Sequence record: NC_020079.1
Strand: one strand, 5' to 3'
DNA: 64,000 bases
Origin: Escherichia phage phAPEC8
The notes beneath the pieces are model-generated. The model worked only from the letters and a program-made list of their open reading frames with translations. It was not told the origin of the DNA and did no database searches. Below are positions 57,700-64,000 of this stretch, piece by piece. Made by a program: the position numbers and the translations under genes. Numbering within the stretch: the first letter of the stretch is position 1; each line of letters begins with the position of its first letter.

Positions 57700-58164
57700 C
57701 TCCTAAACGCGTCTCTGACGCACTTTTTATATATAAGATGATAAATCACCTTACCTAGTAAGTAAGCTTGCTCTACGAGCCTCTTATGAAGCTTAAGTTA
57801 TACTATTGCTACCTGTTTAAGCAAGGTTTTGCACACAGAAAATAATTTTTAATAAAACTCTTGACTTTTGTGTTCGAAGTATGCTACCCTAGAAATCTAT
57901 TAACGAGCGCAGCGAGTTAAGGTTTTAGGTTGTTGATGTAGTACTCTGTACTAAAGCACTGTACTCCGTACTAGATTAATAATTATTAAATATTAATAAA
58001 TAATTATTAGATCTAACAAACAGGTACAGTGTATCAGAACTGGTACGTACATATCAACTTCTATCAATTAAAAAATAAAATAATAAATTATTATAAATAA
58101 TACTTGATCTATAAATCAGTATGAAGTACAGTACGTAACATCTTAACAAGAATGGAGGTGTGCA
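57700..58164. promoter_or_regulatory. divergent intergenic control region with GTAC-containing repeats and AT-rich palindromes
   Basis: TGTACT/AGTACAG half-sites about 8 times; TAATAATTATTAAATATTAATAAATAATTATTA; minus-strand TTGCTT/TATAAC promoter. Confidence 0.5.
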
Positions 58165-58350
58165 ATGATTAGTGAGAATCCGTGCAAATGGCATCATGTG
58201 CCTATTAAAGATTGTATGTCTTGTAATCCACGTTCTATTTATAACATTGCATCTTATGATGATGACAATGTGTTAGACGATGATGAAGGCTGGGAGGATT
58301 TAGATTGGACTGGTTATGAAACCAAAAAGGATAAAATTATTCCTAGTTGA
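58165..58350 (+). CDS. hypothetical small acidic protein
   Basis: ORF, SD GGAGGTG. Confidence 0.5.
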   Translation: MISENPCKWHHVPIKDCMSCNPRSIYNIASYDDDNVLDDDEGWEDLDWTGYETKKDKIIPS

Positions 58351-58387
58351 CTTAAGATATCCTTCGTGCTAAACTAGAAGTGAGGAG

Positions 58388-58639
58388 ATGCCGATCACTC
58401 CCCATTTGGGGTTCGAAGGATATATGCAAAATAGCTTTTATTTTAGGTGCCGTGCTTGTAATAGGCATTTGACAAACCACTCCAGACGTGATAAAAATGG
58501 AGTCATCAAGGAATCAGACCTCTGTTCTATTTGCACAGGTTTGGCTTTTGATGATAGTCCCGAAAGGGTTTATCAGCATCAATGTATAACAGACGTTCTC
58601 GTGTCAAACTTGGTAGAGGACGAACAACTAACAGATTAG
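58388..58639 (+). CDS. small zinc-finger protein
   Basis: CRACN ... CSICTG pairs; SD GAGGAGA. Confidence 0.5.
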   Translation: MPITPHLGFEGYMQNSFYFRCRACNRHLTNHSRRDKNGVIKESDLCSICTGLAFDDSPERVYQHQCITDVLVSNLVEDEQLTD

Positions 58640-58647
58640 GAGGAACA

Positions 58648-58896
58648 ATGTCTCTATTAGAAAAACACGTGTTTGAAGATGGTAACGGCAATGCAGTTTT
58701 TCTTTTCCATCCAGAAAAATACACATCTGAAAACAATGGTACAACTTCTATTGTAATCACTAAAGATGTTAAAGTTATTGATTTCTTGGCTCTGATGCGA
58801 GAGATGGATCTTGAAATTAATACTTTTAACGCAGAAGCTTTGGTTGTTGCTCTTCTGGAAAAGAAAGATAGTGAAGAAGTAGCAGAATATGCTTAA
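58648..58896 (+). CDS. hypothetical protein
   Basis: internal ATG with SD TAGGAGGAA. Confidence 0.5.
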   Translation: MSLLEKHVFEDGNGNAVFLFHPEKYTSENNGTTSIVITKDVKVIDFLALMREMDLEINTFNAEALVVALLEKKDSEEVAEYA

Positions 58897-58903
58897 ATAA
58901 CTA

Positions 58904-58938
58904 TTGACAAACGTATCCTTCATATGTTAGGATACGTT
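58904..58938 (+). promoter_or_regulatory. promoter (TTGACA) overlapped by 9-bp inverted repeat AACGTATCC..GGATACGTT
   Basis: hexamer and palindrome read directly. Confidence 0.5.
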
Positions 58939-59142
58939 CATCAAGTGTGGTAACAGGGTCGTTGACTTTTGTTAAGAGGGGCTTGCACTGCGGTAGTGTT
59001 AGAGACTACTTCTTCAGAGGTTAGCTACCAAAGAGGAAAAGGAATAGTCTCGGCTCAAGAACTTTTACGCTGAAAGTTGGGCTTGGTCTTAGAGAATGTA
59101 GCGGTTCTCTACAATCGTCAGCGTCTCTGTTACCACATTTAT

Positions 59143-59214
59143 GGCCCTGTAGCTCAATGGGAGAGCTGTCGGCTCATAACCGATAGGTAGCTGGATCGAA
59201 ACCAGCCAGGGCCA
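59143..59214 (+). tRNA. tRNA-Met (anticodon CAT)
   Basis: manual cloverleaf: acceptor GGCCCTG/CAGGGCC, loop CTCATAA, T-loop GATCGAA, CCA encoded. Confidence 0.75.
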
Positions 59215-59219
59215 CCAAC

Positions 59220-59291
59220 GTCTTTATGGTGTAATGGATAGCACAGGAGTCTTCTAAACTCTTAGTCAAGGTTCGATTCCTTGTAAAGACA
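59220..59291 (+). tRNA. tRNA-Arg (anticodon TCT)
   Basis: acceptor GTCTTTA/TAAAGAC, loop CTTCTAA, T-loop TTCGATT. Confidence 0.7.
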
Positions 59292-59528
59292 CCAGAACAT
59301 TTTAACATGAATTAGCTCAAGTGATTTGAACCCACTACTGATCATGGTGGCAGAGAATGAGGCAAGTATGTCAGACATTATAAACAAAGGCCACGGTTAC
59401 ATTAGAAGACATAAATGCTCGAAGAGCACCGTTCGTGGAGAACGGGGGTTGGTGGAGTCACCATTCATGGTAAAATGTTTTAAAAAACTATTGACAACTA
59501 ACATTATTTTATGTTAGATTATAAGTAT

Positions 59529-59616
59529 GGAAGGGCAAATCGACGTGGCGACGAAAACGGTCTTGAAAACCGCCGAGCTTGAAAGAGCCTTGGGAGTTCG
59601 ACTCTCCCTCCTTCCG
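59529..59616 (+). tRNA. tRNA-Ser (anticodon TGA), type II
   Basis: long variable arm; loop CTTGAAA; T arm GGGAG-TTCGACT-CTCCC. Confidence 0.7.
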
Positions 59617-59623
59617 CCAGATT

Positions 59624-59706
59624 GGTAGATTGGTGAAATGGTAGCCACGACAGTTTGCTAAACTGTAGTCGGAAACGGCGTGTAGGTTCGAGTCCTACAT
59701 CTACCG
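59624..59706 (+). tRNA. tRNA-Ser (anticodon GCT), type II
   Basis: acceptor GGTAGAT/ATCTACC; stem ACAGT/ACTGT loop TTGCTAA; long variable arm. Confidence 0.7.
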
Positions 59707-59836
59707 CCAAGTTGTTTTTAATGTAGCGTTGCGGCTACTTACTTTAGCAGAGTAAATCTTCGGCAAGTGGCGGTAACCACTTTACCGATACCGCATAGTC
59801 AGTAAGGCGAATACTGGCTACTTTAAAAACAATTTT

Positions 59837-59917
59837 GTGAGATTGGCAGAGTGGTCGATTGCGGGGGACTGTAAATCCCTTCTGAAAGGCGCGGTGGTTC
59901 GAATCCATCATCTCACA
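59837..59917 (+). tRNA. tRNA-Tyr (anticodon GTA), type II
   Basis: acceptor GTGAGAT/ATCTCAC; loop CTGTAAA; long variable arm. Confidence 0.7.
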
Positions 59918-59926
59918 CCAAATTAA

Positions 59927-60009
59927 GATGAGTTGGCTGAATGGTTTAAGCGGCGGACTGTTAATCCGTGTTCGAAAGAACGATATAGGTTCAAATCCTA
60001 TACTCATCG
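59927..60009 (+). tRNA. tRNA-Asn-like (anticodon GTT) with 15-nt variable arm
   Basis: anticodon arm GCGGA-CTGTTAA-TCCGT matches E. coli tRNA-Asn; extra GTTC-GAAA-GAAC hairpin in variable region. Confidence 0.55.
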
Positions 60010-60019
60010 CCAGAATTAT

Positions 60020-60096
60020 GGACTTGTAGAGTTAAGGTAAACCCCCAGTCGCCAAGAGGCTTCTGGAATTGCAGGTATCGAATCCTGCCGAGTCCC
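60020..60096 (+). tRNA. tRNA-like element, non-canonical, anticodon unresolved
   Basis: 7-bp acceptor GGACTTG/CGAGTCC and T-arm-like GCAGG..CCTGC, but no canonical anticodon arm and 8-nt T-loop. Confidence 0.3.
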
Positions 60097-60102
60097 AGCT
60101 TT

Positions 60103-60174
60103 GCTCCTATAGTATAATGGCTATTACAACGGTTTTGTAATCCGTGGATCTCTGTTCGATTCAGAGTGGGAGCA
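60103..60174 (+). tRNA. tRNA-Thr (anticodon TGT)
   Basis: acceptor GCTCCTA/TGGGAGC; loop TTTGTAA; T arm CTCTG-TTCGATT-CAGAG. Confidence 0.65.
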
Positions 60175-60452
60175 CCAACACAACATTAAGGGCACTGTGA
60201 TTGATCGTCGTATCCTGTGCACAAGGTCTGTTCGAAAGACAGTGTTCTTAGTATTGTGTTGATCACACAAAAAGAGTTACCTGAAACTTGACCGGAGTAG
60301 GGTTGGATGGGGCAAAAGAAGAAGCGGCTCTCCCATCGACAGCAACGAAGAATAATATTTGACTTTGGTTTTGTATTATTTTAAGTTAGCTTACCGAACG
60401 TAGGGCTAGTCACCCAACGGGATACTCGTCACTGTCCCACTCAATAAAACTA

Positions 60453-60483
60453 TTGACAACCAATAGTAAAATGTAGTATAGTA
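60453..60483 (+). promoter_or_regulatory. promoter (AACTATTGACAA ... TAGTAT) upstream of tRNA-Gly
   Basis: -35 TTGACA, 16 bp spacer, -10-like hexamer. Confidence 0.5.
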
Positions 60484-60493
60484 AAGATGTAGG

Positions 60494-60564
60494 GCGTTCT
60501 TGGTGTAGCGGTAGCATTCCGTCCTTCCAAGTCGGCGGCACGAGTTCGATCCTCGTAGAACGCT
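60494..60564 (+). tRNA. tRNA-Gly (anticodon TCC)
   Basis: acceptor GCGTTCT/AGAACGC; D-loop AGCGGTAG; loop CTTCCAA; T arm ACGAG-TTCGATC-CTCGT. Confidence 0.7.
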
Positions 60565-60666
60565 CCAAATTATTTAATAAAGGGTTGCCAGAAAACTTTC
60601 TCTTTTACTCATGGTTTTCTCCTTCTCTCACACCTCTTCTGGTTGCCCTTCATTAAATGATTTATT

Positions 60667-60739
60667 GGTTTGTAGTGTAGTCCGGTAGCACACGACACTT
60701 TGACTGTCGTAGGTTTGGTTCAAATCCAGACAGACCAGC
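60667..60739 (+). tRNA. tRNA-Gln (anticodon TTG)
   Basis: acceptor TGGTTTG/CAGACCA; stem CGACA/TGTCG loop CTTTGAC. Confidence 0.7.
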
Positions 60740-60834
60740 CATATAACAAAGGTGAGTCACTACCTCAAGTGTGAAGTTAAAAACGAGGAGCCGCCGAACA
60801 CTTTCTTTTGCGGCGTACCTTTAGAATGTTATGA

Positions 60835-60908
60835 CGGAATTTAGCTCAGTTTGGTAGAGTGTACGCTTTGGGAGCGTATTGTCGCAGGTTCGAATCCTGC
60901 AATTCCGA
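60835..60908 (+). tRNA. tRNA-Pro (anticodon TGG)
   Basis: acceptor CGGAATT/AATTCCG; D arm TAGCTCAGTTTGGTAGAG; loop TTTGGGA; T arm GCAGG-TTCGAAT-CCTGC. Confidence 0.8.
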
Positions 60909-60917
60909 CCAATTAAA

Positions 60918-60988
60918 TGTTTCGTAGTTCAATGGTAGAACCCACGACTGATAATCGTGAGATACAAGTTCGATTCTTGTCGAAACAA
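60918..60988 (+). tRNA. tRNA-Ile (anticodon GAT)
   Basis: acceptor TGTTTCG/CGAAACA; stem CACGA/TCGTG loop CTGATAA. Confidence 0.75.
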
Positions 60989-60993
60989 CCAGT

Positions 60994-61062
60994 TTCCCGT
61001 TAGACTTACAGGATAAGAGTTCCACAATTTATTGTGACGCTGGTTCGAATCCAGCACGGGAT
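60994..61062 (+). tRNA. degenerate tRNA-like element (possible tRNA pseudogene)
   Basis: 6-bp acceptor TCCCGT/ACGGGA and canonical T arm GCTGG-TTCGAAT-CCAGC, but anticodon region is a palindrome with no 7-nt loop. Confidence 0.3.
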
Positions 61063-61069
61063 ACATAAT

Positions 61070-61145
61070 AGCGGGATAGAGGAGTCTGGTCGTCCTCGCC
61101 AGTTTCATATGCTGGAGATCATTGGTTCAAATCCAATTCCCGCCT
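61070..61145 (+). tRNA. tRNA with CAT anticodon (Met, initiator or Ile-lysidine)
   Basis: D arm GAGG..CCTC; stem CCAGT/GCTGG loop TTCATAT; A1-C72 mismatch. Confidence 0.6.
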
Positions 61146-61355
61146 CCAAATATCGCTTGCCAGCGGTATCTTTGAAGACCTTGCCTGGTTCCTTCTAAGA
61201 TGGAGGGGTGCGACTCCTTAACGCACAATTATAATAAAGCATTTCAAATTAACAGTATTTATTAGCCTCCTTATTGGAGGCTTTTTGCTATCTATTGAAT
61301 AAAACTTGACTTATTATTTTTTATATGTTAAGATAAAGTTTAGGAGGATTTTATT

Positions 61356-61652
61356 ATGCCTAAACTAAAACGTGGTCGTGGAAGACCAACAGCCGAAATG
61401 CAACAGATTTACGCAATGGATGCGGCGCAAGCAAGTGTAAAAGAATTATTTGCAGAGCATTATTTAGAAGCTATGCGGTATATTGTTGAACTTGTTAATG
61501 ATAAGGATGCAGCAAAACCTCTCCGCTTCCAAGCAGCTAAAGCTATTAAAGAGCAAGTAGAAGAATGGTTAGAAGAACATTATGAAGCTATGGAAGAAGA
61601 AACCCCTGCCGTGCAGAATACAGATGACGTTCCTAAAAAGATCGTAATCTAA
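61356..61652 (+). CDS. hypothetical protein with N-terminal AT-hook-like motif
   Basis: KRGRGRP motif; promoter TTGACT at 61306; SD AGGAGG. Confidence 0.5.
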   Translation: MPKLKRGRGRPTAEMQQIYAMDAAQASVKELFAEHYLEAMRYIVELVNDKDAAKPLRFQAAKAIKEQVEEWLEEHYEAMEEETPAVQNTDDVPKKIVI

Positions 61653-61699
61653 TCCCTCTCCTCTCTTGGGGCTTTGCCCCTCCTCCTTGTTATTTTTAA

Positions 61700-61735
61700 C
61701 ACCCCTCTCCGAAAGGTTAGGGGCTTTTTTATTTT
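61700..61735 (+). terminator. Rho-independent terminator
   Basis: CCCCTCTCCGAAAGGTTAGGGG hairpin + TTTTTTATTTTT. Confidence 0.6.
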
Positions 61736-61814
61736 TAATGCTTGCAATTATATATCATTTTGTGATAAGATCAGATATGAGGAGGATAAAATATGCGCAA
61801 TTTTGTAGTTAAAA

Positions 61815-62030
61815 ATGATTTTAACCGTTCTTCTTATCATAAAGATAAAAAGAATGATTACACACGGGCTTGGAACTTGGAGGAAGAACTTTATGATGAC
61901 AGAGAAGACTTGGGAAGAGATCCTAGCGGAGGCTCAACCAATGGAAGTGAAGAAGATAGTTAACAACGCCCCTTCTCTTCCTAAAATAAAATTTTATGAG
62001 AAAGTAGAAGATAATGAATCTAAAGACTAA
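61815..62030 (+). CDS. hypothetical small protein (frame and start uncertain)
   Basis: track ORF; competing 59-aa ORF 61793-61969 in another frame has the stronger SD. Confidence 0.3.
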   Translation: MILTVLLIIKIKRMITHGLGTWRKNFMMTEKTWEEILAEAQPMEVKKIVNNAPSLPKIKFYEKVEDNESKD

Positions 62031-62650: not shown

Positions 62651-64000
62651 GTGGCAAAGAAAAAGGCAGCAGGTAGTTTAGCTGGAGTAGATATTGAAGT
62701 AAAGGCTCAACCAGGTAAACAGACTCTTGCAATGGATTTAATGCCAGAAGTTATGATTTATGGTGGTGCCGCTGGATGTGTTTCTGCTGAAACGGAATAT
62801 CTTACAAAAGATGGTTGGAGGCAGATTAGTGAATATTCGGGAGAGGATATTTACCAATACAATCCTAAGAATAAGCGTTTAGAATTGGTAACACCTTATT
62901 TTGTAGAATATGATTTAAATGGAGATAACCTATACAGAATAACAAATGGTGTAGGATTGTTCCAAGAACTTAGTATGGAACACCGTTTTGTATTCTATAA
63001 GAAAAAGAAATCAAAGAAACATTTCGAGATTCTTGTAGGAGATCTTATTGCATTACAGCAAATAGGAAAACCCCTGCGAGGTTATGTAGAAAATCCATTC
63101 GGTAAACGTGTTCCTTTTAACATACCTGGTAAAAAGAGCACTTACTTAAAAATACACGAGGTTATTTCAACAGATGATAAGAAATATTGTTTTGAGACTC
63201 CAAGCAGCTATATTGTCTTTAGACGTGGCGATCACTGCTTCGTTACTGGGAATAGCGGCAAGTCTCGTCTGCTATTGCTGAAAGCTTTAAAATACGCCTA
63301 CAAAGACCCTTTGTTTGGTGGAATACTTTTCCGTAAGAACACCACTGCTCACCGTAAACCAGGTGGTCTGTTTACAGAAGCAAAACGTTTGTATCTTCCT
63401 TTACAACCACACGTAAAAGAAAGTACAATGGATATCATTTTTGAAGCCACTGGTGGTGGAACCCTCAAATTTGACCATTTGGAAAATGATAACGTAACAG
63501 CAGAAACAAACCATCAGGGTACACAGTATTCAATGGTAGGTTTTGACGAGTTAACCCACTTCACACAATATGAAATGCTCTATCTTCTGGGACGTATGCG
63601 TTCAGAGTCAGAAACAAGTTTCATGTTGTGCACATGTAACCCTGACGCAGATAGTTGGGTTTTGAATTGGGTGTTACCTTATCTTGATGAGGGTGGTTAT
63701 CCTAGAGAAGATATGTGTGGTAAACAAAAATATTTCATCATTGTTAACGATGAACCTGTTTTTGCTGACACACCTGAAGAACTGAAAGAAAAATATCCAG
63801 AGAACTGTTTCATGGAAAACCCTAATACAGGGGAGACAGTTGTTATTGAACCACAAACTTTCGTATTTATTGGTGGGACAATATTTGATAACCCAGAACT
63901 CATTAGGCTTAACCCTAATTACTTAGCACAGCTTAAATCACAAACAGCTATCAAAAGAGCACAGCTTCTGGACGGTTGTTGGTTTGCACGTATCCAGAAA
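62651..64000 (+). CDS. terL: terminase large subunit-like P-loop ATPase (runs off window end), interrupted by mini-intein
   Basis: GTG start after SD AGGAGGG; Walker B MVGFDELTHF; canonical Walker A GAAGSGKS only if 62777-63253 is removed. Confidence 0.55.
   Translation, partial: MAKKKAAGSLAGVDIEVKAQPGKQTLAMDLMPEVMIYGGAAGCVSAETEYLTKDGWRQISEYSGEDIYQYNPKNKRLELVTPYFVEYDLNGDNLYRITNGVGLFQELSMEHRFVFYKKKKSKKHFEILVGDLIALQQIGKPLRGYVENPFGKRVPFNIPGKKSTYLKIHEVISTDDKKYCFETPSSYIVFRRGDHCFVTGNSGKSRLLLLKALKYAYKDPLFGGILFRKNTTAHRKPGGLFTEAKRLYLPLQPHVKESTMDIIFEATGGGTLKFDHLENDNVTAETNHQGTQYSMVGFDELTHFTQYEMLYLLGRMRSESETSFMLCTCNPDADSWVLNWVLPYLDEGGYPREDMCGKQKYFIIVNDEPVFADTPEELKEKYPENCFMENPNTGETVVIEPQTFVFIGGTIFDNPELIRLNPNYLAQLKSQTAIKRAQLLDGCWFARIQK
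62777..63253 (+). mobile_element. mini-intein (159 aa) in terminase P-loop
   Basis: starts CVSAETEY (block A-like), SMEH (block B-like), ends ...FVTGN before Ser +1; no endonuclease domain. Confidence 0.5.

Follow-up and report, generated by a model that had tools for sequence, protein, structure and literature searches.

The stretch of DNA analysed here, 64,000 nucleotides (nt) of the Escherichia phage phAPEC8 genome (NC_020079.1) and hereafter called the window, carries on its plus strand a cluster of transfer RNA (tRNA) genes, 11 of which are recognised by ARAGORN. Among them lie two further tRNA-shaped units, termed E1 and E2, which hold a short closed hairpin at the place of the anticodon arm. 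From sequence comparison we consider, with a probability of roughly 0.6, that both are selected, non-decoding tRNA-like RNA genes. The two units and their parts are as follows.

60020-60096, plus strand: E1, tRNA-shaped gene (type A allele, 77 nt) between tRNA-Asn and tRNA-Thr
60020-60026, plus strand: 5′ strand of the E1 acceptor, GGACUUG, pairing with CGAGUCC at 60089-60095 over 7 base pairs (bp), six Watson-Crick and one U·G
60029-60043, plus strand: E1 D-like segment GAGUUAAGGUAAACC, the best conserved block of the family (GAGUUAA..AAACC) and an invariant core in alignments
60045-60066, plus strand: E1 central arm CCAG-uc-GCC-AAGA-GGC-uu-CUGG, 22 nt, at the anticodon position, with its tetraloop at 60054-60057
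60071-60088, plus strand: E1 T-like arm GCAGG-UAUCGAAU-CCUGC, with a 5-bp stem and an 8-nt loop
60994-61063, plus strand: E2, tRNA-shaped gene between tRNA-Ile and the second tRNA-Met (body 60994-61062, discriminator A at 61063)
61003-61021, plus strand: E2 D arm, GACU / loop UACAGGAUAAG / AGUU, with GG in the loop
61023-61036, plus strand: E2 central arm CACAA-UUUA-UUGUG, palindromic, 14 nt and thus 3 nt short of an anticodon arm
61039-61055, plus strand: E2 T arm GCUGG-UUCGAAU-CCAGC, canonical, with a 5-bp stem and the 7-nt loop UUCGAAU

The discriminator of E1 is the C at 60096, directly followed by agc (...GAGUCC-C-agc), and CCA is not encoded. Its D-like arm is weak in the predicted fold, four unpaired bases (AAUU) connect the central hairpin to the T-like arm, and the T loop UAUCGAAU has 8 nt instead of 7 through an extra A behind the first U. 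The acceptor of E2 is formed by 60994-61000 and 61056-61062 with six Watson-Crick pairs and a U1×U72 mismatch, its variable region measures 2 nt, and its 3′ end (...ACGGGAU-a-cau) likewise does not encode CCA. The minimum free energy z-score is -3.63 for E1 and -3.20 for E2, with 0 of 200 dinucleotide shuffles as stable in either case, compared with -1.97 for the real tRNA-Thr beside E1 and -1.11 for the real tRNA-Ile beside E2. An earlier note made from the bare sequence had described a 7-bp acceptor helix and a T-arm-like hairpin for E1 at 60020-60096, with an extended central hairpin and a 4-nt loop instead of a 5+7+5 anticodon arm, and for E2 at 60994-61062 a perfect T arm, a 6-bp acceptor and a palindromic anticodon region leaving no 7-nt loop. 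All of these were located and parsed as described, the loop of E1 being AAGA within its 22-nt arm.

The covariance-model check which the same note had proposed also came out in its favour, as the Rfam tRNA model (RF00005, gathering threshold of 29 bits) recovered no canonical tRNA at E1 or E2 at an expectation value (E) of ≤10. A cmscan of 58000-62000 at this cut-off returned the same 11 tRNAs as ARAGORN at 50-72 bits plus one weak match to the tRNA-Sec model at 59529-59615, and nothing at E1 or E2, even with tRNA-Sec and the other clan models included; ARAGORN made no call at either unit. Canonical tRNA identity was rejected on these grounds, both units falling below the model threshold beside neighbours that pass it. 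Neither contains a register with a 5-bp stem and a 7-nt loop bearing U33 and a purine at position 37, and both loops are 4 nt long and closed by stable stems, with three G-C pairs in E1. Because a closed hairpin with a loop of 3-4 nt takes the place of the 7-nt anticodon loop, E1 and E2 are unable to read codons. In the upper part of the molecule, the T arm expected of a canonical tRNA (5 bp and a 7-nt UUCRANY loop) is present in E2, the loop of E1 having 8 nt, and a 7-bp acceptor is found in both (seven pairs in E1, six Watson-Crick pairs and a mismatch in E2).

Two candidate origins were considered and rejected. A recent duplicate of a neighbouring tRNA is not seen, as local BLAST shows only common T-loop words of 11-13 nt, and a host origin found no match for either unit in 5,426 complete Escherichia coli genomes (distant mode). 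Both slots are unannotated in all seven records of relatives that were inspected; a misc_RNA labelled “tRNA” under the E1 match in phage KKE7M merely duplicates the flanking tRNAs.

E1 is 96-100% identical in all nine related loci compared feature by feature. In the Justusliebigvirus phages KKE7M and arall, identity to the window drops to only about 75% for the adjacent tRNA-Asn and tRNA-Thr and to 47-70% for most other tRNAs, and in phiWec188, where the upstream sequence is unrelated and holds no tRNA-Asn and 117 nt are inserted downstream, the identity of E1 is 98.7%. Over 11 copies of this type A, variation is confined to the tetraloop at its third base (60056; G, U or A in relatives, giving AAGA, AAUA or AAAA), two C's of the D-like segment, one T-stem C→U change that retains a G·U pair, and the discriminator. 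BLAST finds type A in 88 records and a second allele, type B, in 39 including phi92, VEcB and alia, so that the two alleles together fill the E1 slot in about 127 Stephanstirmvirinae records. Type B was first met through a loose D-block pattern in two IMG/VR contigs (L182 and L193) with proteins 45-89% identical to those of the window and a syntenic tRNA cluster, where it lies in the same Asn-Thr slot; otherwise this looser pattern gave mostly chance matches in IMG/VR, and the pattern GTAGAGTTAAGGTAAA gave 37 loci there, all but two Stephanstirmvirinae contigs being chance matches in coding DNA.

Type B reads GUGCUUG-UA-GAGUUAAUAGAAACC-UCUAGA-AUUU-UCUAGA-AUU-GUAGG-UAUCAAAU-CCUAC-CAAGCAA, with UCUAGA-AUUU-UCUAGA as its central arm and UAUCAAAU as its 8-nt T loop. 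The two types are about 70% identical and differ by compensatory changes that preserve the fold, and common to both are the 7-bp acceptor, GAGUUAA..AAACC, a closed hairpin with a 4-nt loop, AAUU, an 8-nt T loop and the lack of CCA. In KKE7M and arall, type A is flanked by Asn and Thr genes that match those of a type B contig exactly, and the switch falls no more than a few bases from the ends of E1; for this reason the E1 allele must be swapped as a cassette. Such a sharply bounded cassette within a mosaic cluster could also be expected of a site acting at the DNA level, for example in recombination or as a homing-endonuclease target, the RNA fold being incidental; the homing endonuclease gene segB lies within the T4 tRNA cluster, and relatives of phAPEC8 have insertions inside theirs. 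However, the compensatory pair changes point to selection on RNA pairing, and no endonuclease gene is adjacent in the window, which makes a DNA-level or other cis site highly improbable.

Outside this subfamily, the D-like block of E1 gave a weak BLAST match (E 6e-3) to Erwinia phage Faunus (Chaseviridae). The element there is unannotated and reads GGAUUCG-UA-GAGUUAAGUUAAACC-(hairpin)-AAUU-GUGAA-CGUGGAG-UUCAC-CGAAUCC-A-CCA; its first 24 nt agree with those of E1 at 21 positions, and the 5′ leader AGAAUUAU is also common to both. Further unannotated copies with a CCA end and a longer, different central hairpin occur in phiEcoM-GJ1, Mangalitsa and other Chaseviridae; those of phiEcoM-GJ1 and Mangalitsa likewise agree with E1 at 21 of these 24 positions and in architecture, and the Chaseviridae elements are probable relatives of E1. 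The T-like loop of the GJ1 element, CGUGGAG, is not a T loop. ARAGORN and Rfam detected no tRNA in the Chaseviridae stretches examined (Faunus, GJ1 and Mangalitsa). On the 3′ side of the E1-like element follows a second unannotated structured RNA with an A-CCA end and an acceptor-like helix GGACUCAU/AUGAGUCC, in Faunus, phiEcoM-GJ1 and Mangalitsa. A small CCA-ended hairpin, also unannotated, lies upstream in GJ1. The coordinates of these structures are 498-593 in locus L173, and ~370-395 and 510-590 in locus L174.

Pair changes were counted in a MAFFT alignment that combined five sequences of type A and one of type B with three from Chaseviridae; the cloverleaf served as the structure. In this alignment 97% of the cells are paired and 8 of the 19 pairs are changed on both sides, a number reached by 0 of 500 shuffles and dropping to ≤2 when the partners are slid by 1-3 columns. 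In the MAFFT output the T arm of the Chaseviridae is wrongly shifted by one column, and the pairs of the central arm and of the Chaseviridae T arm were partly aligned by hand; the hand parse gives compensatory changes at 11 of 16 acceptor, central-base and T-stem positions with 1 mismatch in 128 cells. Among types A and B and the Chaseviridae elements, covariation is seen at acceptor positions 2, 3, 4 and 6.

The E1-family alignment also yielded a covariance model, termed R1, whose sole match in the 64-kb window is E1, with 100 bits; at E≤1 it hits no true tRNA among the 12 present, and the E1 family is therefore distinct from generic tRNA. Type B scores 75 bits and the Chaseviridae elements 66-68 bits, all of these, like E1 itself, being training-set sequences, and outside the training set two unrelated IMG/VR contigs found via the 8-nt T-loop word reach 51 bits (L061) and 46 bits (L033). 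E1 shows every feature of the family, namely the acceptor, UA, GAGUUAA..AAACC, a closed variable hairpin, AAUU, a 5-bp T-like stem and a loop of 7-8 nt. No neighbour gene is shared among the E1-like contexts in L061, L033, L034 and Faunus.

The T-loop word AGGTATCGAATCCT and its longer form AATTGNAGGTATCRAATCCT recur in tRNA-like units of viral contigs, metagenome contigs and contigs of metagenome-assembled genomes. About 36 of the ~118 IMG/VR matches outside Stephanstirmvirinae combine a 5-bp T stem with at least six of seven acceptor pairs, against a rough chance estimate of ~7. Units with such a UAUCRAAU loop of 8 nt are heterogeneous: some have normal anticodon loops (L111, Lys UUU; L222, CAU), others closed hairpins (L218, L046 and L115), L239 is a further example locus, and L033 and L034 have the same acceptor and T arms but diverge in the middle, and one shows CCA where the other shows ACA. 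We regard this wider class as a lead and not as a result.

E2 is matched by 76 BLAST records, of which 69 are of Phapecoctavirus type with a coverage of 80% or more. Its relatives in the Vequintavirinae phages A7_1, A73, W70, UPEC06 and LTH01 lie 3′ of tRNA-Tyr, that of phiEB49 (Drexlerviridae) is annotated as “tRNA-Val” (Val-AAC in ARAGORN), and that of Enterobacter phage SonariX is unannotated and follows tRNA-Gln. A pattern of the E2 D loop and T arm met in IMG/VR only known relatives and one unrelated tRNA-Lys. The family shares an acceptor ending in ..CCGU/ACGG.., the D loop ACAGGAUAA (kept in A7_1 and phiEB49), a canonical T arm, a variable region of 2-3 nt and a non-standard central arm, which takes the following forms.

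Phapecoctavirus: central arm of 14 nt, loop UUUA, CUUA or CUA
Vequintavirinae: central arm of 17 nt, whose “loop” (CGUAUCG or CGUCUCG) is self-complementary and folds shut
phiEB49: 7-nt loop UUAACAA; 24.6 bits on the tRNA model, below the cut-off of 29
SonariX: 9-nt loop AACUUAAGA; tRNA-model score of 33.3 bits, which exceeds this cut-off

The A7_1 copy of E2 is 79.5% identical to that of the window, against 64-72% for five true tRNAs present in both phages, and the UPEC06 copy is 76.7% identical, the five true tRNAs in the same comparison with A7_1 and UPEC06 giving 60-73%. Its acceptor and T stems covary over the window, A7_1, phiEB49 and SonariX, including T-stem positions 1 and 3. Since E2 thus exceeds true tRNAs in identity, its stems covary and its central arm is specific to each lineage, the body of E2 has been retained and its decoding end rebuilt again and again.

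The forms in phiEB49 and SonariX, together with the metagenomic units that combine the same 8-nt T loop as E1 with normal anticodon loops, would suit the idea that E1 and E2 are true decoding tRNAs with odd anticodon arms, used in frameshifting, suppression or rare decoding and missed by software. Against this, both loops of the window have 4 nt under stable stems with no 5-bp/7-nt register, they vary freely among close relatives (AAGA/AAUA/AAAA in E1, UUUA/CUUA/CUA in E2), and no tRNA-model match exists at E≤10; a decoding role is therefore very improbable. The same two relatives can be read as steps of a loop loss. E1 and E2 would then be decaying tRNA pseudogenes, one of the options offered by the earlier note, which have lost anticodon loop and CCA and drift neutrally, deletions being rare in a packed cluster. 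That tRNA finders miss both units, that neither encodes CCA, that variants within Phapecoctavirus strike a D-stem pair, G18 and the loop of E2, that E2 is missing from Justusliebigvirus and that some other tRNAs of the cluster are marked as pseudo in relatives would all agree with such a decay.

However, E1 is far better conserved across genera than its functional neighbours and outlasts the replacement of both flanks, and its alleles differ by compensatory and not by random changes. E2 exceeds the real tRNAs in identity between subfamilies and keeps its acceptor and T arms intact in every copy, and in both units it is mostly the central arm that changes, although it forms a stable hairpin in every lineage. 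Neutral decay thus fits E1 poorly, because an identity of 96-100% stands against about 75% in the flanks and the alleles are compensatory; change at a neutral rate with disregard of pairing is not what is found, less clearly so for E2 within Phapecoctavirus. The decay option is hence mainly one for E2, in which a partial decay is possible, and decay as the explanation of both units seems quite unlikely.

About 70 genomes of Phapecoctavirus (Stephanstirmvirinae; phAPEC8-like E. coli myophages) match the stretch 58900-61300 with 94-98% identity. The order along the cluster is Met-Arg; a promoter-like site, then Ser-Ser...Tyr-Asn-E1-Thr; a promoter-like site, then Gly...Gln...Pro-Ile-E2-Met; and a terminator-like site. 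Its putative transcription signals are listed here.

59491-59520, plus strand: promoter-like site TTGACA-18-TAGATT with TG, upstream of the Ser-Ser-Tyr-Asn-E1-Thr array (consensus match only)
60453-60482, plus strand: promoter-like site TTGACA-18-TATAGT (11/12), upstream of the Gly-Gln-Pro-Ile-E2-Met array
61264-61290, plus strand: intrinsic-terminator-like hairpin and T run closing the cluster, annotated as a terminator in phage ASO2A

A third promoter-like site of the cluster lies at 58904. The number of such sites is not above that in shuffles, and the AAAACTATTGACAA context of the 59491 site is found again at 60453. The 12th real tRNA of the cluster is a tRNA-Ser(UGA)-like gene at 59527-59620 (plus strand) with a G-CCA end, which ARAGORN does not call and which reaches 37.4 bits on the tRNA-Sec model (cut-off 47); it is tRNA-Ser-TGA in the annotation of ASO2A, and its fold in the window is no better than that of shuffles (z 0.06). 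All 12 real tRNAs encode an N-CCA 3′ end. The gaps between E1 or E2 and the neighbouring tRNAs are 2-7 nt, which is also the spacing between pairs of real tRNAs.

Because E1 and E2 lie 2-7 nt from real tRNAs within these arrays, they would be transcribed inside the polycistronic tRNA precursors of two promoter-driven arrays, and would then be released like the neighbouring tRNAs through 5′ cleavage by RNase P and 3′ trimming. CCA could possibly be added by the host CCA-adding enzyme, as happens with some T4 tRNAs in which it is not encoded. The released RNAs would accumulate as stable tRNA look-alikes, whose acceptor, T and D core may engage a hypothetical tRNA-binding partner; this could be a phage protein or a host enzyme of defence or modification.

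A position inside multi-tRNA transcription units with short spacers would equally be expected of elements acting in cis, as an RNase P or 3′-end signal or as a folding insulator, with no further job for the released RNA. Parallels are known from mitochondrial tRNA punctuation, mascRNA and the tRNA-like units of murine gammaherpesvirus 68 (MHV68). Strong constraint on the acceptor and T part only, as in an RNase P substrate, would also agree with this, and so would the Chaseviridae, where the E1-like and the second CCA-ended element lie in a gene-free stretch with no canonical tRNA detected in the parts examined. In the window, however, real tRNAs lie 2-7 nt away on both sides, so that extra cleavage sites would be superfluous, and a signal of shape would not require 96-100% identity, the D-like block or an 8-nt T loop in both alleles; a purely cis-acting role is accordingly an unlikely account of E1 and E2.

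We therefore return to selected, non-decoding tRNA-like RNA genes as the preferred reading. By their architecture E1 and E2 seem to be descended from, or built like, tRNA genes, and the comparison shows that selection retains the top of the molecule (acceptor, D-like core and T arm) and leaves the central arm free in sequence and length. The second option of the earlier note, tRNA-shaped structural or regulatory RNAs, holds in so far as a functional tRNA-shaped RNA is the better supported alternative on account of conservation and covariation. E1 is the stronger and E2 the weaker case, and E2 may be partly relaxed in this phage.

Several observations weigh against this reading. The D-stem pair A11-U24 of E2 has become A×A in four Phapecoctavirus loci, G18 has become A in ev052, and to these are added the U1×U72 mismatch, substitutions in the loop and a 1-nt loop deletion in another phage; in Justusliebigvirus, E2 is absent and the corresponding region holds tRNA-Phe and tRNA-Leu. 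The covariation draws on three E1 and four E2 lineages only and is in part hand-aligned, and the identity of E1 across genera could partly be due to recent horizontal exchange instead of long purifying selection. The discriminator base of E1, which is C or A in types A and B and A or G in Chaseviridae, argues against specific aminoacylation. A decoy for anticodon nucleases should keep an anticodon loop, which E1 and E2 do not have, and any partner would therefore have to read the acceptor, T or D part. Lastly, the annotation of ASO2A, over the first 50 kb, names no tRNA-processing enzyme, most proteins there being hypothetical.

As to what such RNAs may do, a decoy or competitor acting outside translation in the conflict between phage and host over tRNAs is the likeliest of the conceivable roles, yet a tentative idea and by itself rather improbable, for which conservation beyond the needs of the fold, two cassette-swapped alleles and a hypervariable yet always closed central arm can be cited. 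A broader proposal, which we hold to be speculative and unlikely, is that E1 and its relatives form a widespread unannotated class of phage tRNA mimics whose core captures a host tRNA-directed defence or modification enzyme. Such a class would unite E1 with type B of phi92-like phages, the CCA-ended Chaseviridae elements and possibly many UAUCRAAU elements of uncultivated viruses; the variable central hairpin would bar E1-type mimics from translation and from anticodon nucleases, and the two cassette-swapped alleles would reflect an arms race over the captured partner.

Phage tRNA clusters are usually read as codon supplements and lately as replacements for tRNAs destroyed by host defence. Two genes of this cluster keep the tRNA body without decoding and are conserved at least as well as real tRNAs, and standard annotation has missed E1 in about 127 sequenced phages, the well-studied phi92 among them. 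We found no description of E1 or E2 in the literature on phAPEC8, rV5, phiEcoM-GJ1, tRNA-like decoys or T4 stable RNAs. If functional, they would add a layer of RNA mimics to the conflict over tRNAs, and as short elements that can be deleted or allele-swapped they would offer a simple experimental handle. If they are only processing signals or relics, the tRNA counts of these phages are right, and the gaps in the cluster are nevertheless not empty.

Several other features of the cluster were noted along the way. The “tRNA-Asn(GUU)” at 59927-60012 (plus strand), directly 3′ of tRNA-Tyr, has 86 nt, a long variable arm (type II) and G73, and its type II form is kept in KKE7M, arall and L182. Because bacterial type II architecture is normally restricted to Leu, Ser and Tyr, it looks like a Tyr-type body carrying an Asn anticodon. 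The first tRNA(CAU), at 59143-59217 (plus strand), is Met in ARAGORN and most records and tRNA-Ile-CAT (lysidine type) in ASO2A; the second, at 61070-61148 (79 nt), is flagged as a pseudogene in Mt1B1_P17. Strongly structured spacers lie between groups of tRNAs at 59710-59836 (z -3.8) and 60568-60665 (z -5.7, plus strand), the latter folding into a closing helix of ~24 bp round a pyrimidine-rich loop of ~45 nt and being 95.9-100% conserved in Phapecoctavirus; both may be further small RNAs of the cluster.

The cluster as a whole is a recombination mosaic. Its tRNA-Tyr (59837-59920) is 98.8% identical to contig L008 and only ~61%, by local alignment, to most Phapecoctavirus, its tRNA-Pro (60835-60911) is split between 95-100% identity in three compared loci and 54-77% in the other six including L008, tRNA-Asn is missing from the mosaic cluster of phiWec188, and the cluster of Klebsiella phage ZCKP1 contains an insert of ~700 bp with a helix-turn-helix antitoxin-like gene. 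Further downstream, the gene of the terminase large subunit (62651-64000, plus strand) has its Walker A motif split as GGAAG|C...N|SGKS by an insert of ~161 amino acids (~62777-63259), whose first residue is Cys and whose last is Asn; the Pfam Terminase_6N alignment starts only at residue 202. No intein family matched the insert at E≤0.01, and it is probably a mini-intein.

Compared with canonical tRNA (RF00005), E1 and E2 are alike in the 7-bp acceptor, the D-like arm, the 5-bp T stem, the four-way cloverleaf and the packing of the genes, E2 in addition having a perfect T arm and GG in the D loop. They differ in having no 7-nt anticodon loop, U33, purine 37 or encoded CCA, as well as in the 8-nt T loop of E1 and the 2-nt variable region of E2. 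Non-decoding copies of the acceptor, T and D part of tRNA that engage tRNA-binding proteins are known from YrlA and from the tRNA-like domain of transfer-messenger RNA (tmRNA). Unlike in E1 and E2, the two ends of YrlA RNA lie in the Ro-binding stem and its acceptor is a closed loop, and tmRNA is much larger and has an alanine-accepting G·U stem. Both identities were rejected: the only YrlA match is a chance one of 21 bits (threshold 69) across the Pro-Ile junction, away from E1 and E2, and ARAGORN found no tmRNA in the window.

A closer likeness in shape is offered by mascRNA, the MEN-beta tRNA-like RNA and the vtRNAs of MHV68, which are cut by RNase P, processed at the 3′ end and receive CCA, and are neither aminoacylated nor decoding. 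Like E1 and E2, mascRNA and the vtRNAs have a cloverleaf with a degenerate anticodon arm; unlike them, they belong to eukaryotes or eukaryotic viruses, and the corresponding processing of E1 and E2 is a prediction. The Rfam model mascRNA-menRNA gave a chance-level match on the real tRNA-Arg and none at E1 or E2. Among phages, a large survey found many tRNA-like candidate structures with function unassigned (PMC10690425), and a 95-bp “tRNA-Arg” was reported in the Chaseviridae ST32 and phiEcoM-GJ1 (PMC6266442). The latter and the E1-like element of GJ1 may be one locus; the GJ1 element measures 94 nt to the discriminator, has a CCA end and is the sole tRNA-like unit seen there.

The nearest comparable precedent, by analogy, is the species 1 and 2 RNAs of T4 (rnaC and rnaD). 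Homology was rejected, as the tRNA region of T4 contains no R1 match at E≤1, and the T4 RNAs are unlike E1 and E2 in their length (139 nt for rnaC, 119 nt for rnaD), their large interiors and the lack of a tRNA-sized cloverleaf. They are alike in being RNAs other than tRNA encoded beside tRNA genes, stable in T4 and predicted to be so for E1 and E2, and with function likewise unassigned; rnaC moreover has a canonical T arm, CCGGG-UUCGAAU-CCCGG, beside the terminal helix into which its two ends pair, and is thus tRNA-like at the top.

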